Shown in pieces: positions 6,494 to 26,576 of a DNA stretch of 26,576 bases (positions are counted from its first letter, which is position 1; the number at the start of each line of letters is the position of its first letter). Source of the DNA: a virus (taxonomy: Duplodnaviria > Heunggongvirae > Uroviricota > Caudoviricetes); IMG/VR virus record IMGVR_UViG_3300018475_000095. One strand, written 5' to 3'. The notes under the pieces were generated by a model. It was not told the DNA's origin. It ran no database searches and was given only the letters and a program-made list of their open reading frames with translations. A program made the translations under genes and the position numbers.

Positions 6494-6993
6494 TATTCTT
6501 CCTCTTTTAATAAAGCATCTTGCTCTACTATAATCTCATCTTCTGATTGTTCTTGCATATTTAATTTTTTCATTATAGCTGCAATAGCCTCAGTTACTTT
6601 TTCTCTAGATTCTCTTGATATAGATGCATTTTCATTGTCTATATTTACTTGGTTTATTTGAATTGTAGGTGAATTTTCAACTACATCAAAAGATTTTTTA
6701 GCTTTATCTAGATTTAAGCTTATCGCATTTAGGTAATCAATCAAATCTTTATTACTAAATTCAGATGGCTTAAGTCGTATTCTAGCTTCCATTTGAGCTG
6801 TGATAGCATCAATAAGGTCGCTGTATTTCTCTAATCTTAATATATCTTTTTTAGCCTGTACCATATTGAATAGATCAGCAATTCGTTTTAATTTTTCTGG
6901 ATCAGTTTCTTCTATTAATTTTTTATTCAATTCATCAGAACTTTGTAAATTACTTATATTTATTAAATCAGTTGATGTTAATTTATCTTCCAT
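6493..6993 (-). CDS. Hypothetical helical protein
   Basis: 166-aa ORF within the operon. Confidence 0.75.
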   Translation of the reverse strand: MEDKLTSTDLINISNLQSSDELNKKLIEETDPEKLKRIADLFNMVQAKKDILRLEKYSDLIDAITAQMEARIRLKPSEFSNKDLIDYLNAISLNLDKAKKSFDVVENSPTIQINQVNIDNENASISRESREKVTEAIAAIMKKLNMQEQSEDEIIVEQDALLKEEE

Positions 6994-6999
6994 TTTATT

Positions 7000-7317
7000 T
7001 TATAAAATATCCTTGTATGTATGTATTATTTTATTTATTAATCTTTTTTCAAGCTGATCTTGAAGAGGATTAATTTTTGTATCTAATGTCTTTCTAATAC
7101 TCGCATCTAATGATTCACTAGGTATAAATTTATACCTAACATATTCTAATTCATTTGAAATAAGTAATTTACCAAGCCCAATATCAATCTCAAATATATT
7201 ACCTGTTGACCCGCAAATTGTATCGCAAATAATTCATTCCGATTTTTGCACTAATTTAGAAAGAGCATCTGTTGGGATAGTGGTCAATTTAGATAAATCT
7301 TCTATCATATTATTCAT
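7000..7317 (-). CDS. Hypothetical protein (105 aa) with an in-frame TGA at codon 28; missing from the ORF track
   Basis: MNNMIEDLSKLTTIPTDALSKLVQKSE[TGA 7234-7236]IICDTICGSTGNIFEIDIGLGKLLISNELEYVRYKFIPSESLD...HTYKDIL-TAA. It fills the gap between its neighbours. Confidence 0.78.
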
Positions 7318-7525
7318 CTTTTTTCATTCCTTTATTTAGTTTTTTTATTAATTTTAATTCATAATTATCTGAATATAAATACAGCTTATCATAAGCTTTA
7401 CTTAAATTATTATAATATTGAACTACACCTTTGTTCAACCTATCTTCTACTGCGGCACTAAAAATTTTTTTCTTATCCGGCTCAACATAAGATTTTAGTT
7501 CTTGCAATATATAATTAATCTTCAT
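7310..7525 (-). CDS. Hypothetical protein
   Basis: 71 aa, overlapping its neighbours in the operon. Confidence 0.7.
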   Translation of the reverse strand: MKINYILQELKSYVEPDKKKIFSAAVEDRLNKGVVQYYNNLSKAYDKLYLYSDNYELKLIKKLNKGMKKDE

Positions 7526-7901
7526 ACTTACCTCTATGCTTAAAATTGTAATTTGCTAAAACATCACATAGTTTTTGGTAAGCTTGTTTTACTTTTCTAA
7601 GTTCTCTTGACGAATAACCAATAATTTGTATGGCTTCATCATAAGATTTTCCCTCAATATTCACATACTGATATAATAACAATAAATTCATGGTAGAATA
7701 TAATTCTTCTACTGTAGGAATTTTAATACTTCGACCGCCAAAATATTGGCATAATTTTAACATGTTATCTTTATCTAAAATATAAGGTAACTCTCCAATT
7801 GCTGTATATTCTGGTATCTCAGTCAATTTATATAATGTGAACATTGATAATGAATATATATCTATATCTTGCAATGTTTTTATAGCATCTTTATTCAACA
7901 T
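7515..7901 (-). CDS. Mor-family-like transcription activator
   Basis: LCQYFGGRSIKIPT resembles the Mor/C FGG-x-x-x-IP motif; C-terminus is HTH-like. Confidence 0.55.
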   Translation of the reverse strand: MLNKDAIKTLQDIDIYSLSMFTLYKLTEIPEYTAIGELPYILDKDNMLKLCQYFGGRSIKIPTVEELYSTMNLLLLYQYVNIEGKSYDEAIQIIGYSSRELRKVKQAYQKLCDVLANYNFKHRGKYED

Positions 7902-8742
7902 CTTTATTATCTCCTGGGTTTATTAATAAATCTTCAAAAACAGCGGTATCTATCTCATTCATCATGCATATATGTTTTATATCTTTCGCTATTAAATGCT
8001 TTAATTGATTGCACACTACATTAATATATTCTGTAAGCTCTCGAGGTAAATGCCAAGTTATAGGTGAATTAGCTGCTTCTTGCTTATAAATATCTACTAA
8101 TAACTCATCAATATTTAGTCTATAATTATCCGTACCTTTAGAATATAATCTAGTTTTATTATAATTACTCATTGTTATGCTTCTTAGTAAAGTTATCAAA
8201 CAACTAGTATATATATTATTCAATGTTACATTATCAGATGAGTATGGGCTATCTTCTAGAAATTTTTTTAATGTTCGCGGAATAGAAGACAAACAATTCT
8301 CAACTTCTATTTGGATTAATGGGTTATGTTGATCACTTATAGATCTCGAAGAGTATTCTTTAAAAGCATCTACTGCATCATTTCCTTGAACTTCTGAATC
8401 TATTATCTTATTAAACGCTTCTTGTTGATAATTAACTCTAGCTGGGTATAATATTTTCTTTATAAAATTTAAAACAGATTTAATTTTAGGTAATTTTTTT
8501 GGATCATCATCCGGTAAGAATTGTTTTGGATTTGTCAATCTTAAGAATGTCTGCGTAGCCCCATAGATACTGTAATTTTTATAATCCTCAATGGAATTAA
8601 AAAATTTTTTCTTATAGGATAGCGCATAAAACAATTTATATAAATAATCAAATATGATATCTGCATCATAATTGTCCGTATATATTCATTTATCAATATA
8701 AATGCACATATCGGTGTATTTCATTTTTGGCTCTTTTTTCAT
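7891..8742 (-). CDS. Hypothetical protein (283 aa) with an in-frame TGA at codon 19
   Basis: ATG overlaps the sbcC stop (TAATG). MKKEPKMKYTDMCIYIDK[TGA 8686-8688]IYTDNYDADIIFDYLYKLFYALSY continues into ORF 7891..8634. Confidence 0.75.
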
Positions 8743-10613
8743 TACATTATCTCACTTATACCATTTACATTTTTAACAATTTTTAATTCTAAATCACAAG
8801 GTATTAATAAATCATCAGAATGATGGGTTATTATAAATATACTTTCAACATCAGTTAACTTAGTAGTTATTAATTCAATTATTTTATCGCATCCTATTGA
8901 ATCTAAATTATCAAATACCTCATCTAAGGCTAATATATTAGATCTAAATCCTAGAAAATGCACTAGCATATCTCTTATTGAAAATTGAATAATAATATCT
9001 AATCTTTGTTTTTCTCCTCCACTTAGACTTTCATAGGATTTATTGTTATATGAAATATCTATATTATTTCCATTTAAGCAAAATGATAAATTTTGAGATC
9101 CAAAAACATTCTGTGAGTATTCTTTACATTTGGTGTCTATGAATGCAATGATCTCTGATAAAAGGAATCCTCTAAAATCTCTAGTGGCTATCGTTATCAT
9201 TTTATTTATAACTATTAATCTTGATGATATATCTTCTTTTTCTATATTATTATACAGTATTTTTTCCGATAATTCTTCTAGTGTTATTTTTATATTTTGA
9301 ATACTTTTTTCAAGTTTTTCTTTATTATTCAAGAAATTATCTCTGCTATTTATTAAAGTTTGTTTCTGGATCTTCAAATCAGAAATGGATTTAATTATCT
9401 TATCTCTATATTCAATTGCATTGTCATAAATTTGTCTACAGGATTGACCTTCTTTTAACAATTCATCTTTTAATTGGTTATAAGATTCTTGTAATACTGC
9501 AATTTCTTTATTTTCATTTTCTTTACTTAATTCAAGTGCAGATAAAAGTCTATTATCCTCTAATTTAAGTTTATCTAACTTTTCTTCTAAGTCAGTAGTA
9601 TCTATTTTGTGAACATCTGGTAATTTTTGACCACAAGTTGGGCATGTGTCCTTTATGGCTTTTGCTTTACGTATATTTTCTTCTAATAAACTAATTTGAC
9701 TACCAATGTTATACCTTTCTTTTACAAGCTCATTTCTATCATATTTAGTTGCAATATCCAATTGTTTACTTTTTAATTCACTATCTAATGAAGAATATTT
9801 TACTTTACTCTCCTGTAAATTATCATTAGCATCATTAACTTTTTTCTCTGCTAGACTCAATTCTGACTCTTGAAATGATATGTTTATATCTAGATCTGCT
9901 ATTTCATTATTAAAGTCTATGCAAGAGGTATCATCATATAATCTTTCTAACTCTTTAGTTGATTTTTCTAGCTCAAATTCATAAACAGATTTTTTACTTT
10001 CTAATTCTAATAATGTGTCTTCTACATTTCTTAGATTCGTAGATAAACTAGATTTCCTATTTGAAAGCTTATCTTTGATATCCTCTATCATAAAATCTGA
10101 TTTAGATAATTTTTCTAATATTTCTTTTCTTCCTGATGGTGTGTTATTTGTAAATTTCTGCGGAAGACCTTGTCCTAATATTATAACTGAACCGAGTAAA
10201 TTTATATCAATATCAGGTAATATGTCGCTAAGAATTTTCTGCGTATCGCGGATACCCTTTCCTGATATATCATTATTGTTTTTTAATACTTTTAAATTAG
10301 TGCCGAATTCTTTATCATCTTTATACCTAATTACTATGTAAGAATCAGAATCAATTTCGAAATTAACTTTTACAGAAGCGCCGCCTACTGCGTACTTATT
10401 AACAATATCTTTACATCCTCTCAAAGTTTCCCCAGTTAACGCCCATATAATAGCTTCTAATAAAGAACTTTTGCCGCTTCCATTGCTCTTCGATCCGGAA
10501 TCCATTTCATTCTTACCTGATATACTAACGAATCCGAGCTTTTGCAAATTAATATCTACTTGTCCTAATGACATGAAATTTTTAATTGATACTGATCTAA
10601 ATACTAAATTCAT
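8742..10613 (-). CDS. sbcC: SbcC/Rad50-like SMC ATPase (recombination nuclease subunit)
   Basis: Walker A NGSGKSS, Q-loop LGQG, zinc hook CPTCGQ, signature LSGGE, Walker B LDEVFD, H-loop ITH. Confidence 0.92.
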   Translation of the reverse strand: MNLVFRSVSIKNFMSLGQVDINLQKLGFVSISGKNEMDSGSKSNGSGKSSLLEAIIWALTGETLRGCKDIVNKYAVGGASVKVNFEIDSDSYIVIRYKDDKEFGTNLKVLKNNNDISGKGIRDTQKILSDILPDIDINLLGSVIILGQGLPQKFTNNTPSGRKEILEKLSKSDFMIEDIKDKLSNRKSSLSTNLRNVEDTLLELESKKSVYEFELEKSTKELERLYDDTSCIDFNNEIADLDINISFQESELSLAEKKVNDANDNLQESKVKYSSLDSELKSKQLDIATKYDRNELVKERYNIGSQISLLEENIRKAKAIKDTCPTCGQKLPDVHKIDTTDLEEKLDKLKLEDNRLLSALELSKENENKEIAVLQESYNQLKDELLKEGQSCRQIYDNAIEYRDKIIKSISDLKIQKQTLINSRDNFLNNKEKLEKSIQNIKITLEELSEKILYNNIEKEDISSRLIVINKMITIATRDFRGFLLSEIIAFIDTKCKEYSQNVFGSQNLSFCLNGNNIDISYNNKSYESLSGGEKQRLDIIIQFSIRDMLVHFLGFRSNILALDEVFDNLDSIGCDKIIELITTKLTDVESIFIITHHSDDLLIPCDLELKIVKNVNGISEIM

Positions 10614-10621
10614 AATATCTC

Positions 10622-11674
10622 CTATAAATTTTTTAATTCATCTATCAAAATATCAGACTTTTCAATGCTATCCAATACATATTCTTTAAATTTAGTTACA
10701 TGATCAACTGCTGGTGATAAAGATTGAATCTGAGAATATGATCCTACATTGAAAGGCACCGATAGTAGCCTGAAACAAATTATATTAGAATTTTGTGCTA
10801 TCATTTCTCGTATGCTATGAATATCTTTATCAAACACCCTTACAGTTACTATAGCATTATTACAATTTTTTAAAATTTGCTCCCAATTATTTTCTGTAAA
10901 GTCTAATTTATAAAAATTAAAAGCATATGGATTATTTATTAAATCTATTTTTAAAGTGTCAGTATCCAATATCCCGATACAATGTGAATGCTTAAACCCA
11001 TCTTCGCTAAAATTTTGGCCAGTTAAATTTCCTAAATTTAAAATTTTATTATTTATTTGTGCTTGATTATGCAAATGTCCATTTACAAAAAGGGAACAAT
11101 GATTACATATTTCTTCAATATGGAATCCTGACTTAGATATAAATTGACCATATTGAATTCCAGCTATATCATTATGTGATAGAATAATTCTTTTTTTAAC
11201 TTCTTGAGTTGTAACCATCCCTGCATAATATTCATTCTGGGTTTCTTTAATATATTCTGCTAAAGGTTTACGGTTACTATCTATAATATACGGCAAATAA
11301 AATAATTCGTATCCATATCCGCAATCGATAGTTGGTTTATCTATAACTTGACCATACTTAGAAAGCGCTTTTGTAGAACTATATAAATTTTCTTGACTGC
11401 CTAACTCATGATTTCCTACTAAAAAAACATGCTCAATTTCTGAATTCCAATTTATTTCTGATAGAGCTGTTAGCTCTTCTGCTTTCAAATCTGGTGAATC
11501 AAAAAAATCTCCTAAGCAGATTATTTTAGAGCAATTAAAATCTTTAGCTACTTTTTCCACCCAATTCAAACTTTCTATCTGGTTCTCCAACCTCTTCGAA
11601 TACTTCTGTCCTCTTTCGCGTAATATACTTGAATATGTACAAAAATGATTATCTGTGTATACTAATATTTTCAT
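10622..11674 (-). CDS. sbcD: SbcD/Mre11-like nuclease
   Basis: TDNH, LGDFFD, GNHE, SH and GHLH motifs; adjacent to sbcC. Confidence 0.9.
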   Translation of the reverse strand: MKILVYTDNHFCTYSSILRERGQKYSKRLENQIESLNWVEKVAKDFNCSKIICLGDFFDSPDLKAEELTALSEINWNSEIEHVFLVGNHELGSQENLYSSTKALSKYGQVIDKPTIDCGYGYELFYLPYIIDSNRKPLAEYIKETQNEYYAGMVTTQEVKKRIILSHNDIAGIQYGQFISKSGFHIEEICNHCSLFVNGHLHNQAQINNKILNLGNLTGQNFSEDGFKHSHCIGILDTDTLKIDLINNPYAFNFYKLDFTENNWEQILKNCNNAIVTVRVFDKDIHSIREMIAQNSNIICFRLLSVPFNVGSYSQIQSLSPAVDHVTKFKEYVLDSIEKSDILIDELKNL

Positions 11675-12580
11675 CTATAACATGTTAACTAAAATGTAAT
11701 CAATGATATTACTTTCAGCTATCTCCCCATTTTTTAATTTATATTCTAATTTTGTTATAATATTAAAAGCATTTACAAGCTGGTCTCTACTGTAGTACCC
11801 GCATTTTTTCTTGAGCATGTATAAGTACCCTGGTTTTATATTCAGATCTTCTGCTGTTATATTTTTATTAAATTGAACGTTTAATATTAATCTGATATTT
11901 CTATATAATAATGTTATTACACCTAATGGTTCTATATCTATATACTTAATATTTTCTAGTATTCTAGCTATTGTTGATTTATCTTTAATCATTATAGCTT
12001 CAATGAATGATAATATTGTGTCGGTGGATAAATCGCTAAATATTCCATCTAGCATAAATTCATCAAAAAGCTGAGGATGGCGTTTTTCTGGAAATAGTTT
12101 TAATTTATCTATCTCTTCCTGAATTCTATACATATTATTATTACAAGCATCTATGAGCCATTTTCTTTGAGCTGGCTTTAAATAAGGAGTTTGCAATTCT
12201 ACATATTCATCTATGTGTTTAGGTTGAACTTTAGGTGCTTTAATTATACTATCACTTAGTAAGTTTGCGGTGTCAGTATCAGTTATCTTAGATGTCACAA
12301 TTATTAAGTTTTTTTCTCTTATTATACTTTTATCTGAGCACTTAAAATCATCGCATTTGTATACTAAAAGTTCTGAATTCAAAATAGAATTATTAAATAT
12401 ATCTTCAAAATCATTTATTATATATTCTAATGAATCAATATATCTTATGCATAATTTTTTTTGATTAGCTATTGTTGTTATATAATGATCAACTAAAAAT
12501 ATATCCCAGTTCTCAAAAACCAGGATAGAATCAGATAACATATTGTTTTCTATAAACTTCTTTAACTTTTTAAATTCCAT
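11675..12580 (-). CDS. holA: Clamp loader delta subunit (HolA-like)
   Basis: NNMYRIQEEIDKLKL and C-terminal KLEYKLKNG resemble HolA; size ~300 aa; next to holB and dnaX. Confidence 0.65.
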   Translation of the reverse strand: MEFKKLKKFIENNMLSDSILVFENWDIFLVDHYITTIANQKKLCIRYIDSLEYIINDFEDIFNNSILNSELLVYKCDDFKCSDKSIIREKNLIIVTSKITDTDTANLLSDSIIKAPKVQPKHIDEYVELQTPYLKPAQRKWLIDACNNNMYRIQEEIDKLKLFPEKRHPQLFDEFMLDGIFSDLSTDTILSFIEAIMIKDKSTIARILENIKYIDIEPLGVITLLYRNIRLILNVQFNKNITAEDLNIKPGYLYMLKKKCGYYSRDQLVNAFNIITKLEYKLKNGEIAESNIIDYILVNML

Positions 12581-13389
12581 TACTTAGATAATCCTTGTTT
12601 TATTTCAAATAATTTATTTTCAAATAAATACTTTTTATTTATATATGGCAAATTTAACTCTTGAATAAGAGTATTGAAAGAAACATACATAAAGTAATAC
12701 TTATCAGTGTACTCTTTTCGCAATCTCTGTCGTAAATTATATACAATCAATGAAGTTAAAACATCGAGTGAATATTTATTTTTTTCATCCTCGAATGCAA
12801 TGCTATCTGATATCTTTAACGCATTATAATAAGGAACAGAAGCTAAATTATCAATTATTTTATTGGTAAATTCTAAAGCATCTGAGAGCTTTTCTCCCTT
12901 TATTTCCCTTATTTGCCCAGGTGTTTTAGCAATATCTAATATTAATTTATTATCACAGTCTAAATCAATAAATTTACCCAAGATCTCTTTAGAATAGATA
13001 TTCATAAAAAGTTTAAAGCATCTGTTATGTATAGTTGGCAACAATTGGTTGGTGTTCTCGCATAGAATAATTATAAAAGAATTTTGAAGTGGCTCTTCTA
13101 TAAATTTTAATAATATACTTTGTTCTTTATCAACTTTATTCTTCGCTGTGATTATATTCATATCTATAATGTATAAATATGGTTCAACTCGCTTATATAT
13201 CTCTTCTAGTTTATCTATATTTATACTTTTTGAAATATTTTCTATCGGTAGATTAAACTTAGTAGAAATATAGTCACAAATCATATGTTTGCCACTGCCT
13301 TTTAACCCTTGTAGCAATATACTTTTTGGAAAAGATTCTAACGAAAATGAATCTATAATTTGTATTAAACTCTCTTGCCCTAAGATCAT
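12580..13389 (-). CDS. holB: Clamp loader delta-prime subunit (HolB-like)
   Basis: ILGQE, GLKGSGKH, LLKFIEEP and LLPTIHNRC (SRC-like) motifs. Confidence 0.78.
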   Translation of the reverse strand: MILGQESLIQIIDSFSLESFPKSILLQGLKGSGKHMICDYISTKFNLPIENISKSINIDKLEEIYKRVEPYLYIIDMNIITAKNKVDKEQSILLKFIEEPLQNSFIIILCENTNQLLPTIHNRCFKLFMNIYSKEILGKFIDLDCDNKLILDIAKTPGQIREIKGEKLSDALEFTNKIIDNLASVPYYNALKISDSIAFEDEKNKYSLDVLTSLIVYNLRQRLRKEYTDKYYFMYVSFNTLIQELNLPYINKKYLFENKLFEIKQGLSK

Positions 13390-13391
13390 TG

Positions 13392-14411
13392 TTATTTACC
13401 TCTTGCTATCTGTAGAAACACGATTTCGATAGTGGATTGAATGTTCGTATCATTTTTAATTAGTTGTTTTAATGATAACAATTTATCTAATATATATTGA
13501 AAGTATTTTTGCGCATTTTCAATAGCTAATATATTTTTTATATCAGATTCTAAGCTAGACGGAATTGATGTCACTGTCAATTTTTTGAATATATGATATT
13601 TTAAAACATCTAATATAAAATCTATATACCTGTCTAAAAATATTTTCATGTCTGGGTAACTATTATCAATATCTTTCATACTATCGATAATTATATCTAT
13701 CCTGCCATCTATAAAAGCATTTGTTATTTTTATTAGCAAAGAAAATGGGGCAGCTCCTAAGATTGGGAGGGTATTTGATATATCTAAATCCAATGAGAAA
13801 GCTGCGCATTTCTCAAGCATAGATATAGCTGTTCGCATACTTCCATCACTTATTTTAGATATATAATTTATAGTGTCCTCGAAATTTTTAAAATTTTCTA
13901 ATTTACAAATTTGATCTAATCTGTAACAAATATTTTCTTCGCTAATTCTAGATATATTAAATCTTTGAACTCTGTTTAGAATGGTAGATGGTATTTTTTG
14001 CGCATCAGTTGTGCATAAAATAAATATTGTAAACTCTGGAGGTTCTTCTAAACATTTCAACATAACTTGCCATGCTTGATTTGATAAAGCATGGACTTCG
14101 TCAATTATAAAAATTTTATATTTATAATCAATTGACCTTTCTTGAGCTGATTTTATTATAGATCGCATTTTTTCTGCGCTGCTGTTTGATGCAGCGTCAA
14201 TCTCAATATAAGAGTCTGGAGCTTTGTTTATTTCAGTAGCTAATAGTCTAGAAGCTGTAGTCTTACCAGCTCCAGTGATACCTGTAAATAAATATGCATT
14301 TTTAATCATTCCTGTTTCAATTTGTTTTGTTAATATTTTAACAACAGATGATTGACCTATAACTTCTTCCCATTTTTTAGGTCGATATTTTACTGCTAAT
14401 GATTGTGCCAT
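13392..14411 (-). CDS. dnaX: Clamp loader ATPase, gamma-like (DnaX)
   Basis: LAVKYRP, GITGAGKTT, EIDAAS, IIDEVH, LKCLEEPP, TILNR and GSMR motifs. Lacks the tau C-terminal extension. Confidence 0.9.
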   Translation of the reverse strand: MAQSLAVKYRPKKWEEVIGQSSVVKILTKQIETGMIKNAYLFTGITGAGKTTASRLLATEINKAPDSYIEIDAASNSSAEKMRSIIKSAQERSIDYKYKIFIIDEVHALSNQAWQVMLKCLEEPPEFTIFILCTTDAQKIPSTILNRVQRFNISRISEENICYRLDQICKLENFKNFEDTINYISKISDGSMRTAISMLEKCAAFSLDLDISNTLPILGAAPFSLLIKITNAFIDGRIDIIIDSMKDIDNSYPDMKIFLDRYIDFILDVLKYHIFKKLTVTSIPSSLESDIKNILAIENAQKYFQYILDKLLSLKQLIKNDTNIQSTIEIVFLQIARGK

Positions 14412-14809
14412 TATATATCTAACTCCTTCAATATCTTTAGTGATTTTTTAGGACACCAACCTATCCATTCAGAATTTAAATCAATATTTAATTTTATATC
14501 ATATCCAACACCTTTAATCTTTACCATTTTGCCAAGATCTTGAAGCGTTAGAATTTTCATATATTTATCTGATGGTTTTATATTATTATTCCAATTAGCA
14601 TGAAGAGTAAAACCATTTGGTTCATTTAAAATATAATCTGCTAATTCTACAATATACATTCTTCCAAGATGAACTACATCAGTATCAGTTATATTTGCAG
14701 CTGCAGCATGAGTATATTTTGGAATTACAATATGAGTTGTATTGGAATCAAAATTTGGTATCTGCGCTAATTTGACAGACTTTAACTGCTGCTCTATGAT
14801 TTTATTCAT
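14411..14809 (-). CDS. Hypothetical protein
   Basis: 132 aa with TAATG overlaps. Confidence 0.75.
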   Translation of the reverse strand: MNKIIEQQLKSVKLAQIPNFDSNTTHIVIPKYTHAAAANITDTDVVHLGRMYIVELADYILNEPNGFTLHANWNNNIKPSDKYMKILTLQDLGKMVKIKGVGYDIKLNIDLNSEWIGWCPKKSLKILKELDI

Positions 14810-15459
14810 TACATCCTTTCCGATATGAAGGTAGCTGCCATGTCAGCTAAGTGCAATAAAACTGCTAATGAGAATTTATTATAAATAGGAGTTAAGTCAA
14901 CTTGCGCAGAATCATGACCTTTACCTCCCATGTGATGTAAAATTGCAACTTCTTCCTCTAATGATAAAGGCATAAATTGCGAAACCATGAAAACTGAATT
15001 TTGTTCGTGATTTCCATATAGAAATCTTTCTTTAGCATCTCGTGTTTTTATAAAAGGTACTTTTGTCCAATTACCATTAGCATCTTTTACATTTCTCTCA
15101 GCAGTCTCATAAAAATTCATTTTACTAATATCATGTAATAATGCTGTTATAATTAAGCTATCATCAGAAAAAGGTTGTTTATATCCTTCTATAAATTTCA
15201 TTTCTCCAGTTTCATCTGGTTGAAATTTTGGATATTCAATCTTGATTAAATTGCAAAGTTGATCATATACGTTTAATGAATGTTCACATAGACCACCTTT
15301 ATATCCGCAATGATATTGAGTACTAGCTGGCGCTATAAAGAAATCAGAATTTTCTAATTTTTTAATAAGAGCTTGTATGTCTGCTCCCTCTCTTTTTATA
15401 CTGTTTAATAAATTAATAAATCTTTCTTTATTTTCTAATATTTTATTTTCGTCTAACAT
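14809..15459 (-). CDS. HD-domain phosphohydrolase
   Basis: YH...GGLCEHSLNV, LLHDISK, ILHHMG and LHLAD motifs. Confidence 0.88.
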   Translation of the reverse strand: MLDENKILENKERFINLLNSIKREGADIQALIKKLENSDFFIAPASTQYHCGYKGGLCEHSLNVYDQLCNLIKIEYPKFQPDETGEMKFIEGYKQPFSDDSLIITALLHDISKMNFYETAERNVKDANGNWTKVPFIKTRDAKERFLYGNHEQNSVFMVSQFMPLSLEEEVAILHHMGGKGHDSAQVDLTPIYNKFSLAVLLHLADMAATFISERM

Positions 15460-15476
15460 TTTTATTCTCCTTTAAA

Positions 15477-15926
15477 TTATACTATATATACATTATTTAA
15501 ATTTTTTAAATATATTTCACATAATGGTTTGACATCTTCTTCCCAATCTAGCCCGCCGCATCCGCATCCAGGCCTTGGTAAATAAATCTGTTTATCTGGG
15601 TATAATCTTGCGATAGCACTTAGATGAATCAAACTATCTGCTATAATAGATAAGTCAGATGATTCCCATACTTTATCTTTTGTAGGAAATCTAATCATTA
15701 ATGCTTTAGAAACAGAGTCAATTCCTAAAATATAATTATTTTTCAATATGCACGCACCGCATGTTAACTCTAATCCAGGGTTTCTCATAACAGCTTCTTT
15801 TGCAATGCCTGCTCCCATGATATTTTTTCCATTTTTGAGAACTACATTATTTGTCAATATGCATACAGCAGAAGTATCATCTAATAAGTCCCAAACATTA
15901 CCTTGTATTTCTTTCATATTATTCAC
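15477..15926 (-). CDS. Macro-domain (ADP-ribose binding/hydrolase)-like protein
   Basis: GN.WD, TN, MGAGIAK, FPTK and LPRPGCGCGGLDW motifs. Confidence 0.8.
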   Translation of the reverse strand: MNNMKEIQGNVWDLLDDTSAVCILTNNVVLKNGKNIMGAGIAKEAVMRNPGLELTCGACILKNNYILGIDSVSKALMIRFPTKDKVWESSDLSIIADSLIHLSAIARLYPDKQIYLPRPGCGCGGLDWEEDVKPLCEIYLKNLNNVYIV

Positions 15927-15957
15927 CTCAAATATTTATACAGTAAAAAAGAGATGA

Positions 15958-16323
15958 CTAATCATCTCTTTTTATTTTTCCTAATAAAATATCCATCATT
16001 TCTTCAGAAATTATATAATAATTTTTTGAATTTGGACCAAAACTTATTGCTAACGCGCTATAAGGCTTGCCCATAAATAACGCTTCTTTTTCATTTTTAT
16101 CAATCCAATCTCTTTTTACTGATATAGACTGTGAATCCGATACTTTTGTTTTACATTCAATCAATATATCATCTAGCAATATATCCCCTTTCTGGAACAT
16201 TGTCGCTCCGCTATTCAATGTTTTCTTGCCATTGAATGCTTTTGCAACTTTTGTTTCTTGCATATTACTGTAATATCGAGTTGGTTTTATTGATTGATTG
16301 TGAGATGTTTCAAATAAGCCCAT
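15958..16323 (-). CDS. Hjc-like PD-(D/E)XK nuclease, putative Holliday junction resolvase
   Basis: QE..VA, SGA, KGDI and IECKT motifs; directly downstream of recA. Confidence 0.65.
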   Translation of the reverse strand: MGLFETSHNQSIKPTRYYSNMQETKVAKAFNGKKTLNSGATMFQKGDILLDDILIECKTKVSDSQSISVKRDWIDKNEKEALFMGKPYSALAISFGPNSKNYYIISEEMMDILLGKIKRDD

Positions 16324-17492
16324 TATTCTTCATCCTTACTTTCTGAAGGTAATGATTTATTTAGCTGAGCTTCAACTGATTCTTCTTGTTGTTTAATTTC
16401 AGCTTGTTCTCTAGCATCTAGAACATTTCCATATGAATCGGCTGATTTAAAAATAAATTTATTTAGCATTGCGATATAATCTTTTTGGAATTCAATATTT
16501 GTTTTAATATACTCTTCTAAGTCTTTTCTCTTACCAGTAAGTTCTTTACCATCAGGTGTTTTATATATTTCACCAGTCTCAAGATCTACTAACTGATAAG
16601 TTACATTATTAACTCTATGAATAAAGTCAAATTTATATGCTATTTCAAGTAAATCTTCTAACCACATCAGACCTTTTTCGTAATTGAATGAGATAAAACC
16701 ACCACCTCTAGCAATTGAACCACATTTTTGTTTAGTGATAGCAAATTTTAGTCTGAATCCTTCAGCACCTTCTCCATCACTGCAGTCTACTTTATCGCCT
16801 TTAATAAAAGTTCTAGTTCCGAATCTAACTTTAATAGATGAATAATATTGAGGAGCTTGACCACCAGGTTCTGAATAAATTGGTGCACCTGTAAATGTAG
16901 TTCCTGATACCCTAACTTGATTAACCATTATAAATATATTATTCGTTCTATTCACTAAAGCACTCATAGCAATCAAGAATCTATGCAGTGATTTAGCAAT
17001 TGTACCTCTCATACCAGGGTCTTTTGTCATATCATTTTCAACAGATTGCGCTGGCATTAATGCAGGTATAGAATCAAGAACAATCATACCAATATCTTCT
17101 TGTTTTTGAAAATCTAATATAGCATCTAAAATTTGCTCACCTGTTAAAGATGTTGGATTAAAATAAATCATTCTTTCTGGATCTAGGCCAGTCATTCTAG
17201 ATTGAAATTGAATATCTAAAGAGTGCTCTAAATCTACATAAACACATATTTTTTCCGGTTCTAATCTTTGATAAGCAGCCATTGCTACACAAGCAGCGCA
17301 AGTTTTTCCAGAGTGAAATAAACCTGCAAATGTATGAATTCTGCCTCTAACTAAACCACCTTGTAAAGGGTAATCTAGTCCAAAAGCACCTGTTGCCATT
17401 CTTTCATAATCTGGTGATATACTTGCTTTAATCGCTAATTTGTCATCATGGTAATCTCTATTTAATTTTTTTGCTAATTCTAATACTCCCAT
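16323..17492 (-). CDS. recA: RecA/UvsX-like recombinase
   Basis: GGLVRGRI, Walker A GLFHSGKT, YVDLEHSLD, IVLDSIPAL, VNQVR and PGG motifs. Confidence 0.9.
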   Translation of the reverse strand: MGVLELAKKLNRDYHDDKLAIKASISPDYERMATGAFGLDYPLQGGLVRGRIHTFAGLFHSGKTCAACVAMAAYQRLEPEKICVYVDLEHSLDIQFQSRMTGLDPERMIYFNPTSLTGEQILDAILDFQKQEDIGMIVLDSIPALMPAQSVENDMTKDPGMRGTIAKSLHRFLIAMSALVNRTNNIFIMVNQVRVSGTTFTGAPIYSEPGGQAPQYYSSIKVRFGTRTFIKGDKVDCSDGEGAEGFRLKFAITKQKCGSIARGGGFISFNYEKGLMWLEDLLEIAYKFDFIHRVNNVTYQLVDLETGEIYKTPDGKELTGKRKDLEEYIKTNIEFQKDYIAMLNKFIFKSADSYGNVLDAREQAEIKQQEESVEAQLNKSLPSESKDEE

Positions 17493-17493
17493 A

Positions 17494-17988
17494 TTATTCT
17501 CCTAAGCTTTCATTCATTCCTATAGATAGTTTTGCTTCTTGCATTCGAGACATTAGCACCGATTTTAAAGCATCAACTACTCTATGGCATTCATCTAATT
17601 TTAATTTAAGCATTGTATGAACTTCGTTGTATACCGCTTCTGCTAAATTCTGATAACTGCTTTCTAGTAAAGCAGTATTCTGTTTGAATGCAACTGTACC
17701 ATCTGTTTCGTTAAATTTTTTTGCATATACTTCATCTTTTAATTGTTCTGCGCAAACAGATTGCAAAGATGCTTTTTCTTTTATCTCTCCTAAAGTATAA
17801 GATTTCAAAGAAATTTTCAATATAAGTAATCGTATATCTTCTAACGATAAGTTATTTACATTTGATTCTGCACCTTTAATTAATGTATCAATTTCTAAAG
17901 TTATTGGTTTAACCAAACTATCAGCAACTTGCATAAGATCAGAATAAACTAAACTTACGTTATCTAAAGCTTCATTTAATTTTTTCAT
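17494..17988 (-). CDS. Helical protein, possibly a UvsY-like recombination mediator
   Basis: 164-aa helical ORF between recU and recA; function inferred from position only. Confidence 0.55.
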   Translation of the reverse strand: MKKLNEALDNVSLVYSDLMQVADSLVKPITLEIDTLIKGAESNVNNLSLEDIRLLILKISLKSYTLGEIKEKASLQSVCAEQLKDEVYAKKFNETDGTVAFKQNTALLESSYQNLAEAVYNEVHTMLKLKLDECHRVVDALKSVLMSRMQEAKLSIGMNESLGE

Positions 17989-17990
17989 TT

Positions 17991-18467
17991 TTATTCTCCA
18001 AACTGTAATGATAAATTTAAAATACTATAATCTGATTCCATCATAGTTCTTAATTTCTTAGATGGAATATCTATAATATGATAATTATTATCATTTAGCA
18101 TTTTTATATTCACAGATTTTTTACCATCAGATTTCATTTTTTCAATTTCTATGATAGGTACATAAACAACTTTATCTCTTTCATTGAACCATATTATAAC
18201 GCCTCTTCTCGTACCTTTAGTTGGGCATTTTTCAATAAGTTTCTTATATTGTTTCAAATTTGTGAATGGGAATGTATTTCCTTTAATTGTTTTACATTCA
18301 ATATAATATTGATATGGATAACTATAACAAATAAAGTCTGAGATATTTGATATTCCTTTCATTCCAAATCCCGGATCATAAAGTCGCTCACCATCACTAT
18401 CCGGCATAGATTGTAATCAATCTTTTAAAAATCTTGCTTCAAACTTTTTTCCTAAATTTTTAGCCAT
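17991..18467 (-). CDS. recU: RecU-like Holliday junction resolvase (158 aa) with an in-frame TGA at codon 17
   Basis: MAKNLGKKFEARFLKD[TGA 18417-18419]LQSMPDS...SDF...YIECKT. The RecU-type GxxFE motif lies upstream of the TGA, and the ATG overlaps the dnaN stop. Confidence 0.78.
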
Positions 18468-19615: not shown

Positions 19616-20637
19616 CTACCATAAGCTTTCTTTAAATAAAGTGTTACCTTTATATTCAAATTCTTTTCTCCATTTATCTAATGCATAAAGATTAAAAATC
19701 ATTCTTAAAGATCCATTATCATCTTCTAGTAAATGTTTTAACTCAATACCATGACCTATTTCTTTACACAATTCTTCGACAGCTTCTCTAACAGCTAAAG
19801 GTTGGTTAGTTATATGATCAGGTGAATCAGGATTTCTATTACTTACATATACTGTTTTTACTTTACCGTTTATAACAATGTTTAGATTACCAAAAGATGC
19901 TGATCTTATCCAGCTTGTAGAATCCGAACTCATGCTTGGATATTGCTCCATAAGTTGAACAGTTGTCATACCAAAATTATGAGTTAATGGTATTTCTCTA
20001 CCTAAATTGTTGCATACCTCATATATAAATTTCCATGTTATTTCATACCATTTAGCTTTTTCACTTACTGCTGCATCGTTAGATGGAGATATACCAATAT
20101 ATTCAATAAATGATCCATCTGAAAATCTATATTCAAGCATATTTCTTAAATATTTAAAATCTTCTCCCATATGAAAAACAGGTAATATTTTCTTCGGACA
20201 ATTTACTCTTTCGATCATATATAAATAATTTTTCCAACTATATTCTGGAGCTTCTAATAATTGCTCTTGAGTTTTTGGTTTTCCAAATTCACCTGGAATT
20301 TTATCAAGTTCTGCAAACCAATAAACTGCATCTTCAATTGAATTTATAAATTAATATATTCATCTATATCTATTTTTATACCTCTAGTCCAAGCTGAATA
20401 TGCAGAACTATCTACAACTAATTTACATGGACAACTAGGATCTTTTCTAATCTCTTCAACCCATTCTAATAATTCTTTCTTTTCATTTAACCAGGCTAAT
20501 AATTGCGGATAACCTAATTGTTTTTTAACTTCTCTAGCACTAGTTATAGTACCATCTGGTAGCTCCACATTGGATACCCCTGCACCTGCTGCAATAAGCA
20601 TATATGGCTCACCGCATTTTCTCTGTTCAAATTGCAT
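19616..20637 (-). pseudogene. TGT/DpdA-like guanine transglycosylase, split by a -1 frameshift near 20348-20350
   Basis: Adding one T joins both ORFs into ~340 aa: VVDSSAYSAW...DEYINFINSIEDAVYWFAELDKIPG...SWKNYLYMIER...LPVFHMGE...YIGIS...THNFG...SSDSTSW, matching TGT-fold motifs. May be an assembly error rather than a true pseudogene. Confidence 0.7.
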
Positions 20638-23326: not shown

Positions 23327-24451
23327 TTAACACATCAATGGGTCAAGTATTTCATGTAATTGCTCGATAGTGCTCTCAGTTCGCTCTTCGACTAAATCAT
23401 TGAATGCTTCTTCTTTAGATTTGCCGTTTTTTACTTTCTTATTAAACTCAGATTTAACTTGTTCCATAAAATCTGTTAAATACCAACAATCTTCAATCGT
23501 GGCATCACATTTCATTGGGCATGTACATTCTGGCTTTGCAGATTCAATCATTAAATAAGACAATCTATCAGCAACTTTTTCTGCATTCTCTTTAGGACAT
23601 TCTCCTATAAGCTCATCATGAACTGCTAGCAATAATCTAAATCCTAAATTTTTCAATTCAGTATCTCTATATACAGATATCATAGCTTTTTTCGACATTG
23701 TAGCAGCTCCACCTTGAACCCTAGCATTAACGGATTGTCTTTCAGCTTGAGCTATAAATCCACTGTTATCTGAAAGTGTTATATTTTCTTTAGCAGCTTG
23801 TACTTTCAATGATTCATACTCGCGCCTGTTTCGGCATTTACTTAAAGCTTCTCGATATTTTTTAATTAGAGCATCTTCTTCTGAATAATCTTTATTGCAT
23901 CCAATAAACGGATTTATATTACACTCTTCTTGTTTTGTAGTATATTTTATGGTGTATTTTGGGAGTAAAATATCCGGTAATCTTCTTCTTCTACCCCATA
24001 GATCCTCTACATATCCATTTTTTCGTGCATCCGATATTGTTTTATCAACCCAAGTCTTTACTTTAGGAAATCCATCGAAAAATTTGTCGATAATAGCTTG
24101 AGCTTCTTCAACAGTTTGATCAATCTGCTCAGCAACAGATGCTGCTCCACGTTGATACATAATACCAAGCACAATACTCTTACAAAAACCTCTTCGTTTC
24201 TTACCTTCAGGATTAGCAGTACCGTCTTGCCTAAATTCCATATTATCCCAATAATCGTTATTGTAAACTTTAGAAGCTACAGTTGCATATAAATCTTGCT
24301 TATTCATATACGCTTGCAGCATGTTTTCATCTCCAGAATAATGAGCTAGAAGGCGAGGCTCCTGCTGGGAAAAATCCGCACCGACCATCGTATACCCATC
24401 AGTAGCTTTGAACAGCATTCTTATTTCTTTGTTGTGACTTGGTATGTTTTG
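23327..24451 (-). CDS. polA: Family A DNA polymerase, exon 2
   Basis: QNIP, motif A ADFSQQEPR, motif B RGFCKSIVLGIMY, NARVQG, motif C VHDE. Confidence 0.93.
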   Translation of the reverse strand, partial: QNIPSHNKEIRMLFKATDGYTMVGADFSQQEPRLLAHYSGDENMLQAYMNKQDLYATVASKVYNNDYWDNMEFRQDGTANPEGKKRRGFCKSIVLGIMYQRGAASVAEQIDQTVEEAQAIIDKFFDGFPKVKTWVDKTISDARKNGYVEDLWGRRRRLPDILLPKYTIKYTTKQEECNINPFIGCNKDYSEEDALIKKYREALSKCRNRREYESLKVQAAKENITLSDNSGFIAQAERQSVNARVQGGAATMSKKAMISVYRDTELKNLGFRLLLAVHDELIGECPKENAEKVADRLSYLMIESAKPECTCPMKCDATIEDCWYLTDFMEQVKSEFNKKVKNGKSKEEAFNDLVEERTESTIEQLHEILDPLMC

Positions 24452-25700
24452 CAATATGTTATCGTCAAGCTCTTTATCTTGACCTCTATAGTTATTTGAT
24501 ATTTTACTATAGTTCAGACTATATCTTTAACTTTAAATAATTCTCATACTTTCTTTGTAATTTAAAACAATCATCTATCGAATATATCCAATCTAAAAAT
24601 TTTTTAGCTGTATTTCCATTTAAGCTTAAGTAAGGATATAATTTATTGTTTCTCTGTGTATAGTTTATTTTAATATTTAAATTTACATGATAATTTATAA
24701 TATCGATCAGGTGTTTTATAAATATCTCTGATGCAGTGCAAAGTGAGCAGCAATAGCGCTTTTTTGATATATATCCATCTCCATCAAAACACCCAAGCAA
24801 ATATGCTTTAATACAATTTTCTGATGGAAAATTACACCTAGGATTAACTGAAAAAGTTTTTGGACCATCTAATAAGTTAAAATTATCTATCAAAAACTTA
24901 TTTAACCCATTCGCTGATAATCTAAGGGAATATGTTTTTCCATATTTCTTTATATCGAAGGATGAATTATAATAAATCTTAATAGCTGTTAGTAAATCTA
25001 ACTCACTCTCCCCTGAAAGCCTAAGTTCTATAGCATTTGAATTTTTTGGTATGTATCCATCAGTAGCAGTTAATCCTACTAGATAATAGAGATGTGGATC
25101 ACTTAAATCATAAAGTTTAGAAGTATCTAGTTGATGCTTAAATTTTTTGATAAGTTTATATTTGCTACGCCTCCAATCTAATATACTCTCAGATATATTA
25201 TTTTCAACAGCTAATTGATGTATACTTTTGTTGGTATTAACCCAATTATCAATTAACCATTGCTTATCAATATCAGGTCGAATGCGTCTTGATAGATCTT
25301 CAATACCTTTTCTAGGACTAATTCTAGGGTATTTTAAATTAAAATTTATTAGTAATTTATTTAACTTATAAATCGATATATTTAAATGTTTACATAAATC
25401 TTTTTTACATCTAAATTTTAATATTAAATTTTGTATATCTTTTTTATTTAACATTTGATGCCTCCAATAAATTTAGCATCATATTTTATATAGTAAGTAT
25501 GAATTTTTTGAATTATTTAAAGTTATCGCGCGCTCGTGGATGAATTATTGATTTTATCTCTCATCATCTAGTCGTTGCTCCTTCAAAGGAATTTCTCCTA
25601 AGCTTGGATCAGGATTGTGGTAATAATTTATCAAACCATGTTCCCTGAGTTCACGCGAAGTTTACCTTACAATCACTTGCAAGGGCCTCCATATATTTTA
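24452..25700 (-). mobile_element. Group I intron (1249 nt, probably subgroup IA) in polA
   Basis: Splicing CCAAACCTT|...ATTG|CAAAAC restores SSDPNL-QNIP. The 5' exon U pairs with G in P1 (GGAGG guide) and the intron ends in G. R element GCAACGACTA (25569-25578), S element AAGATATAGTC (24517-24527), 13-bp P8 (25513-25525/24528-24540). Confidence 0.93.
24519..25454 (-). CDS. Intron-encoded LAGLIDADG homing endonuclease
   Basis: Two motifs, YYLVGLTATDGYI and AYLLGCFDGDGYI; N-terminal HTH-like segments; own GGAGG RBS; located in the P8 loop. Confidence 0.88.
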   Translation of the reverse strand: MLNKKDIQNLILKFRCKKDLCKHLNISIYKLNKLLINFNLKYPRISPRKGIEDLSRRIRPDIDKQWLIDNWVNTNKSIHQLAVENNISESILDWRRSKYKLIKKFKHQLDTSKLYDLSDPHLYYLVGLTATDGYIPKNSNAIELRLSGESELDLLTAIKIYYNSSFDIKKYGKTYSLRLSANGLNKFLIDNFNLLDGPKTFSVNPRCNFPSENCIKAYLLGCFDGDGYISKKRYCCSLCTASEIFIKHLIDIINYHVNLNIKINYTQRNNKLYPYLSLNGNTAKKFLDWIYSIDDCFKLQRKYENYLKLKI

Positions 25701-26576
25701 AAGGTTTGGATCACTCGAACTGAATCTTCCAGTACCAGCACCTAACTGATTAAAATGAGCATGTAATCTTTTAGTCAATGGATTAACAGCTTCTGGTAAT
25801 TTATCTATATATGTATTAATAAGCTTTGCTAAACCTCTTTTCTCTAATATAAGAGAACATATAGGTAAATTTATTTTTTCTAATATTGGTTCACCTGTCC
25901 CTCTTGGTGTTTTCTTGTCAATAACAGGTATCTTTAATATATCATATAATAGAATAGCTAATTGAGTAGGGCTAGTGATCTCTACTGGATCTTTAAGTTG
26001 TTCACCTTTAGTCTTAGCTACTTTACCATCTTTTGATTCTTTGCTCGGTATAAGAGCTTCTGGACTATTTCGCCAAGCATCAATCTGTGGCTTTAAGTTA
26101 AATAACTCCTCATTAATTTTTTCATCTATTACATCCATTTTTTTATGGTATTTCAAACTTAATAGTTTTGCATATTCTTGATCAATATCTACTCCAGAGA
26201 GCTCCATCTCAGCTGCAACTTCAACGATAGGCATCTCAATATTTAAAAATAAGTTATATAATTTTTCATGCTCTGGTCTTTCAAATATTTCTTTTTGCCA
26301 TTCATATAATTTGTAAGTCATATAAGCATCTGTAGCTGCGTATAACGCAAAGACTTCAGGATCTACTATAGCATATTCTACATTTTCAAATAAATGATCA
26401 ATAGAATATTTCTCAATACTTGGATCTAACTTATCTATATACTGCTGTTTCAATCCAGCAGATCTTTCATTCTCATCTAGGATTTTAGCTCCTATCATCG
26501 TATCCCAATAAACTTTAAGCTGCTTCTTTGTTGTGCATTTTATAACTTGATAGTCAAATTTACCGTTATGCATGAT
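25701..26576 (-). CDS. polA: Family A DNA polymerase, exon 1 (5' end outside the window)
   Basis: ExoII HNGKFD, ExoIII YAATDA, SPTQL and TGRFSSSDPNL motifs. Confidence 0.93.

Follow-up and report, generated by a model that had tools for sequence, protein, structure and literature searches.

How is the codon TGA read in the phage that gave the 26,576-nucleotide Caudoviricetes sequence IMGVR_UViG_3300018475_000095 of IMG/VR (the whole stretch being called the window hereafter)? The question is raised by three open reading frames (ORFs) of its minus strand, which code for a RecU-type Holliday junction resolvase and for proteins of 283 and 105 amino acids (aa) and which each contain an in-frame TGA close to their start. 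A sequence-only reading of the window had suggested that TGA is recoded, probably as Trp, and that this reflects either early-stage recoding or a translational gate on a few genes. After comparison with homologues and with syntenic phages, we consider it very likely that this lineage reads TGA as Trp, with a phage-borne Trp-like tRNA(UCA) present in relatives, that the use of TGA depends on the gene module, and that the three codons of the window are conserved exceptions.

In-frame TGA codons and gene ends in the window

The 39 minus-strand genes examined in the window all close at TAA (28 genes) or TAG (11 genes) and never at TGA, as first described. Out of frame, the same genes contain 552 TGA, 962 TAA and 518 TAG. 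The three in-frame TGAs stand at the positions and in the residue contexts given by the sequence-only reading (Table 1) and occupy codon 17 of RecU, codon 19 of the 283-aa ORF and codon 28 of the 105-aa ORF, all within the first 28 codons. They represent 4% of the Trp codons of the window (3 TGA versus 77 TGG) and are found in 3/39 genes, consistent with the remark that TGG still encodes nearly all Trp. With 12 of the 80 Trp codons located within the first 28 codons of their genes, the probability of all three TGAs falling there is 0.0027, a value that is only suggestive, as the limit of 28 codons was set post hoc.

When TGA is read as Trp, the ATG of each of the three genes overlaps the stop codon of the gene upstream (TAATG at 18467 and 8742, ATGAATAA at 7317-7310), the GKKFE motif at the N-terminus of RecU is restored, and an otherwise empty gap of 318 nucleotides (nt) is filled by the 105-aa ORF. 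These consequences of read-through had all been anticipated from the sequence. The coding density of the window rises from 93.2% to 95.1%. A further candidate, the TGA at 2976-2978, was discarded as spurious, since the true start of the gene lies downstream of it and a relative has a Leu codon there.

The three TGA-bearing genes

The RecU product scores 26.9 bits against the Pfam family RecU (PF03838), above the curated cut-off of 25, and is matched by phrog_843 from residue 3 (E = 5e-13). Under genetic code 11 the gene is called as a 138-aa protein with a start at 18407. Homologues number 222, with a length of about 157 aa and a conserved N-terminus; within IMG/VR they are only distant (36-41% identity). 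In an alignment of 36 homologues, D44 and K59 are invariant, and E57, G6, K7, F9 and E10 are nearly invariant, so that the GKKFE motif regained by read-through proves to be a conserved element of the family. The conserved acidic and Lys residues of the core are presumably catalytic.

The AlphaFold model of the 283-aa protein reached a predicted local distance difference test score (pLDDT) of 82. About 17 of the top 50 structural matches obtained with VIA-align were sigma-factor domains, residues 6-119 being superimposed on sigma region 2 with Z-scores of 5.3-7.2, a range that helical bundles also reach by chance. No match was obtained with Pfam, PHROG or PDB profiles or with Foldseek against PDB, and Foldseek against BFVD retrieved only uncharacterised phage proteins. 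Judging from the model, the N-terminal domain may weakly resemble region 2 of sigma factors.

For the 105-aa gene no call is possible under code 11. Its model has a pLDDT of 69, and 6 of the top 7 VIA-align matches were IHF, HU or Hbb proteins with Z-scores of about 4, which weakly suggests an HU/IHF-like fold.

Conservation of the TGA codons in relatives

Syntenic uncultured relatives were found as contigs of 142-150 kb. In the ENA contig k141_506696 (hereafter the relative), which is syntenic to the window with identities of 37-100% per protein, the same three codons are TGA, and the contig k141_2211569 has TGA at the homologous positions of all three sites. Among the loci compared, TGA stands at RecU codon 17 in L001, L002, L086 and L088 and at codon 19 of the 283-aa protein in L002 and L086; the relative and L086 also have it at codon 28 of the 105-aa protein. 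A JGI contig encoding a 99%-identical RecU carries the RecU TGA as well. In L088 (ERZ28593074 scaffold_3069, 6782-7252) the RecU protein is 58% identical and the GC content is 49%, and the TGA is kept (KQDwLRTMPD, w standing for the TGA); AT pressure alone therefore does not account for the codon.

Codon alignments revealed synonymous in-frame substitutions on both sides of each TGA, and the N-terminal segments preceding the TGAs are conserved in the 222, 72 and 7 homologues of RecU, the 283-aa protein and the 105-aa protein, respectively. The possibility, raised at first, that homologues begin downstream of the TGAs was thus not borne out. These data also bear on the explanation that the TGAs are true stops, the genes being pseudogenes, the result of sequencing errors, or shorter genes with downstream starts. 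Such starts can be proposed, as RecU has an in-frame ATG four codons past its TGA and code-11 gene callers give 137-aa and 252-aa versions in the relatives. However, identical TGAs occur in at least 4 independent assemblies, which excludes sequencing errors and pseudogenes. Purifying selection is visible upstream of each TGA, in conserved N-termini that comprise residues G6, K7, F9 and E10 of RecU, and the 105-aa gene would be left without any product, as a 318-nt hole. We consider true stops to be very improbable.

We then have to consider which amino acid is inserted. In homologues the column of RecU codon 17 contains W, F or L, and that of codon 28 of the 105-aa protein contains W, W, W, W, Y, Y and L. 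Codon 230 of the 283-aa protein provides a fourth column: the window has TGG at this site, the relative has TGA, and the aligned residues are F, W or Y. These columns fit Trp and not Gly, Cys or Sec. In total, TGG or W/F/Y is observed in orthologues at three of the four TGA columns; at codon 28, TGG is found in the orthologue P0195, which is 62% identical and translates under table 11. The exception is the 283-aa protein, whose more distant homologues have H, N or T at the position of codon 19.

One related phage behaves differently. In L087 (ERZ27286960 k141_572379, 15418-15421 and 10001-10498) the RecU protein is 65% identical and the RecU column is TGG, while TGA serves as a stop codon, for instance where a start and a stop overlap as ATGA. 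L087 looks like a standard-code relative of the recoded lineage, and the genetic code thus varies within this phage group. As judged from the alignments, TGA is a sense codon in the lineage of the window, and the amino acid is almost certainly Trp.

TGA use and a tRNA(UCA) in the relative

The relative k141_506696 was read stepwise out to 67 kb. All its long frames end in TAA or TAG, directly adjoining the gene that follows, so that TGA was not found as a common stop elsewhere, in the relative any more than in the 39 genes of the window. Upstream of its replication genes lies a module with a tail-fibre match, in which 8 of 9 genes contain TGA. TGA and TGG number 12 and 13 in this module, versus 4 and 71 in the replication module, and reading it with code 4 instead of code 11 raises the coding density from 81% to 99.6%. 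The gain in coding density expected from recoding, modest in the window, is thus large here. Other genes of the relative that contain TGA include an SNF2 helicase with three, and the TGAs are spread along the genes. Enrichment of recoded codons in late or structural genes over replication genes was observed in the relative only, the window having no late genes.

ARAGORN detected a Trp-like tRNA(UCA) in the relative (Table 1). It has an A1-U72 pair, G73 and a tRNA-Trp-like anticodon arm with a CTTCAAA anticodon loop. Its long extra arm forms a hairpin with a CTCCAAA loop, a copy of the tRNA-Trp CCA anticodon hairpin. The same type of tRNA was recovered from 17 IMG/VR contigs and 54 metagenome contigs, and the members of this family share covarying stems and a 7-bp acceptor stem followed by G73 and CCA. 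A literature search for a published suppressor tRNA with two anticodon arms returned nothing relevant.

The properties of this tRNA were also weighed against a decoding of TGA as selenocysteine or as glycine (code 25). ARAGORN labels the tRNA 'SeC(tca)', owing to its long extra arm. Yet its 7-bp acceptor stem does not fit the 8/5 acceptor/T-stem arrangement expected for selenocysteine, the A1-U72 pair, G73 and the anticodon arm are Trp-like, the aligned columns contain W, F and Y and never C or G, and TGA interchanges directly with TGG between orthologues. Selenocysteine or glycine is, in our estimation, the most improbable of the explanations considered.

In the window itself, neither ARAGORN (allowing for introns or not) nor an Rfam E-value scan nor motif searches revealed a UCA anticodon; the tRNA genes present are those for Asn, an intron-bearing Leu(UAA) and a Lys(UUU)-like tRNA, together with a 66-nt tRNA-like gene. 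By alignment, the tRNA(UCA) gene of the relative is positioned 4.4 kb beyond the end of the window, so that its absence from the window says little, and the corresponding gene of the window phage would sit just outside the window. A search for a tRNA-Trp(UCA) or a release factor gene, proposed at the outset, thus gave a divided answer: neither a tRNA(UCA) nor RF1 is found in the window, but a tRNA(UCA) is found in the syntenic relative. The TGA-rich tail-fibre module and the dedicated tRNA of the relative imply that sparse TGA is specific to the replication module, and do not support the suggestion of early-stage recoding.

Host code

Another explanation is that the host itself uses genetic code 4, as a Mollicute-like bacterium would, and that the phage simply follows. 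The low GC, the lack of gene ends at TGA and the alignment of TGA with Trp would all be expected in this case. In the Mycoplasmatales and Entomoplasmatales, which use code 4, TGA is the main Trp codon genome-wide and release factor 2 (RF2) is absent. The window resembles these organisms in that TGA stands for Trp and not for a stop, and differs from them in that TGA makes up only 4% of the Trp codons, that the tRNA is phage-borne (in the relative) and that the likely host lineage has RF2. TGA is thus far from being the predominant Trp codon in nearly all genes, with 3/80 Trp codons and 3/39 genes, whereas phages of hosts that read TGA as sense (code 25) carry it in about 90% of genes (Borges et al., 10.1101/2021.08.26.457843; later Nat Microbiol 2022). 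Moreover, the relatives encode their own tRNA(UCA), and the sister phage L087 uses a TGA stop in its ATGA overlap.

The host was also approached through a YhhQ-like gene of the phage. Its nearest cellular homologues (57-64% identity) are encoded in five genomes of 1.5-2.0 Mb; the YhhQ-like records, from seven loci, are labelled 'bacterium' (three records), uncultured Erysipelotrichaceae, uncultured Bacilli and a Bacteroides uniformis bin. Both prfA (RF1) and prfB (RF2) were detected above curated cut-offs in all five searched genomes, which are of Bacilli. RecU was not found in any of them. They are bacteria and not mis-binned phages. This comparison points, through the weak link of a single gene, to a host of standard code. 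A Mollicutes-type host code is unlikely, and we judge a phage following a code-4 host to be improbable.

Selection against TGA in the replication module

At conserved Trp sites of the module, TGG is replaced by TGA at 1/61 sites in the comparison with the first relative and at 0/34 in that with the second. At conserved sites where the window has a G-ending Lys, Glu or Gln codon, the relatives have the A-ending codon in 62% of cases. A TGG-to-TGA exchange at 1/61 sites against a G-to-A turnover of 62% means that TGA is strongly selected against in the replication module. Such avoidance fits genes that are translated before the suppressor tRNA is made, or without much of it. Given this avoidance, the three exceptions must be either tolerated or useful. 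They were kept in 3/3, 3/3 and 1/1 comparisons, and lost once.

Several observations weigh against the interpretation of the three codons as conserved exceptions in a lineage that decodes TGA with its own tRNA. The retention of the TGAs is about that of neutral A-ending codons, which are kept at 82-84% of sites (A to G at 16-18%). All the more distant homologues of the 283-aa protein have H, N or T, and never W, at the position of codon 19. The fold assignments of the 283-aa and 105-aa proteins are weak. The window contains no gene for a tRNA(UCA), RF1 or tryptophanyl-tRNA synthetase, so that the decoding agent of the window phage has to be taken from a relative. JGI sample 3300023715, the only one in which a contig nearly identical to the window is known, contributed none of the 54 metagenome contigs with the dual-loop tRNA motif, and none of these contigs is closely similar to the window. 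The N-terminal clustering statistic (P = 0.0027) is post hoc. Finally, the absence of TGA stops from 39 genes is weak evidence taken alone: in a standard-code Agate relative, TGA makes up only 2.7% of the stops (10.1101/2021.08.26.457843).

Another explanation is that recoding is real and the three TGAs are neutral leftovers, produced by chance TGG-to-TGA or other substitutions in genes for which timing is unimportant, and merely tolerated, with no gate. The retention just given (82-84% per pair for neutral Lys, Glu and Gln codons) is what this explanation predicts, the L087 lineage has TGG in RecU, and the other TGAs of the relative are found anywhere along the genes, with three in the SNF2 helicase. 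On the other hand, more than 60 other Trp codons of the module stay TGG despite the 62% G-to-A turnover; since TGA is costly in the replication module, neutral leftovers should revert. The RecU TGA survives at 58% protein identity and 49% GC. Trp is not the ancestral residue at codon 19 of the 283-aa protein, so a silent change was not the origin of the TGA there. The TGAs are all three near the N-terminus. We regard neutral leftovers as a real possibility, at somewhat less than an even chance.

If the exceptions are useful, they may act on timing. As long as the suppressor tRNA is scarce, ribosomes would halt after 16-27 codons of the three genes, and full-length RecU and the two putative DNA-binding proteins would be produced only after the phage tRNA has built up. 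In Bacillus subtilis, tRNA-Trp reportedly reads through UGA naturally at a low level, and Trp insertion at such a low rate would supply a little full-length protein even while the phage tRNA is still absent. This is leakage and not reassignment, and would explain neither the absence of TGA stops nor the TGA-dense late module. A timing gate on the RecU, sigma-like and HU-like proteins is plausible, as are a resolvase and late transcription or chromatin proteins as targets for delayed expression. A stronger version, in which the three N-terminal TGAs form a built-in timer and the code switch itself would set off the transcription of late genes and, ahead of packaging, the resolution of branched DNA, is tentative and in our view rather doubtful. 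The translational gate proposed by the sequence-only reading is accordingly compatible with the data, in that TGA is avoided elsewhere and the three codons persist in diverged relatives, but it is not demonstrated, because the codons are also retained as neutral A-ending codons are.

Gene content of the window

The coordinates of the features are collected in Table 1. Every credible gene of the window is encoded on the minus strand, and the GC content is 26-32%. The phage, which is large, uncultured and of gut or rumen origin, has a GC content of about 28%, and the window represents its replication and recombination module. The window had no match in a near-identity search against 50,697 deposited phages. 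The closest cultured phages are Streptococcus phages Dp-1/MS1 and Clostridium phage phiCTP1, which infect Firmicutes and have a clamp loader identity of only about 37%. No terminase was found in the window or in the 67 kb read of the relative.

Table 1. Features of the window and the tRNA(UCA) gene of the relative
Feature	Position	Strand	Basis or remark
In-frame TGA, codon 28 of the 105-aa ORF	7234-7236	-	context SE*II
In-frame TGA, codon 19 of the 283-aa ORF	8686-8688	-	context DK*IY
In-frame TGA, codon 17 of RecU	18417-18419	-	context KD*LQ
105-aa protein	7000-7317	-	seven homologues of 105-109 aa, end-to-end alignment
283-aa all-helical protein, family unassigned	7891-8742	-	72 homologues of about 285 aa, N-termini aligned from residue 1
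RecU-type Holliday junction resolvase, 158 aa with TGA = Trp	17991-18467	-	Pfam RecU and phrog_843
Trp-like tRNA(UCA)	L010:13203-13297 (k141_506696)		ARAGORN
Replication/recombination module	window, all credible genes	-	profile searches
Second Holliday-junction-resolvase-like gene	15958-16323	-	phrog_2002, E = 2e-27
TGT/DpdA-like gene, broken	19616-20637	-	1-nt deletion near 20353
Family A DNA polymerase (PolA), two ORFs	23327-26573	-	LAGLIDADG endonuclease ORF between them, 24519-25454
Beta clamp and three-subunit clamp loader	window	-	profile searches
RecA/UvsX-like recombinase	window	-	profile searches
SbcC- and SbcD-like nucleases	window	-	profile searches
7-deazaguanine cluster	window	-	

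The second resolvase-like gene, which contains no TGA, lies two genes downstream of RecU, past the recombinase gene; of the two resolvases of the phage, only one thus has a TGA. PolA is probably interrupted by an intron or intein that carries a mobile endonuclease, and k141_506696 has a different ORF, of 233 aa, at the split site. In the TGT/DpdA-like gene, the window reads ATATATT-AATTT where the intact 340-aa orthologue of the relative has ATATATTGAATTT, and the flanks of the deletion are 95-100% identical to the relative at the protein level; the break may reflect a frameshift, recent inactivation of the gene or an error of assembly. The anaerobic ribonucleotide reductase NrdD of the relative (L014:13510-15982) is also split, into two ORFs of 426 and 291 aa located 316 nt apart; no in-frame TGA bridges this gap, which may be an intron.

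Comparison with known recoded phages

Gut phages that read TGA as Trp were described in the Agate, Sapphire and Jade clades, and were predicted to infect standard-code Firmicutes and Bacteroidetes (10.1101/2021.08.26.457843). Recoding was proposed there to time expression, its occurrence in replication genes being called only 'variable', and a UGA-decoding tRNA was detected in only 35% of the code-4 phages. The lineage studied here shares with these clades a large genome (127-200 kb in the clades), low GC, an origin in animal guts, alignment of TGA with Trp, depletion of TGA as a stop and, in relatives of the window phage, a phage tRNA(UCA). In these clades recoding falls chiefly on structural and lysis genes and the standard code largely prevails in replication genes, a contrast also seen between the tail-fibre and replication modules of the relative, and close relatives among the Agate phages differ in code (10.1101/2021.08.26.457843) as L087 and the window do. 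The likeness is one of recoding pattern, the window having no terminase for clade placement. What differs from the published account is the presence of three TGAs inside the replication module, conserved early in the coding sequences of a resolvase and of two proteins that putatively bind DNA. Recoding of this kind is therefore already described, and the modest novelty lies in these conserved N-terminal TGAs and in the measured avoidance of TGA around them.

Consequences for annotation and for the phage programme

Annotation of this lineage under code 11 cuts RecU short, with loss of its GKKFE motif, cuts the 283-aa protein short and misses the 105-aa gene; gene calling in these phages should read TGA as Trp. 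The window also provides a quantified example of uneven use of a recoded codon within one phage genome. If the three exceptions do act as a timer or gate on the resolvase and on the putative transcription and chromatin proteins, the code switch would act as a regulator ahead of the late genes and the late programme, besides being a property of those genes.

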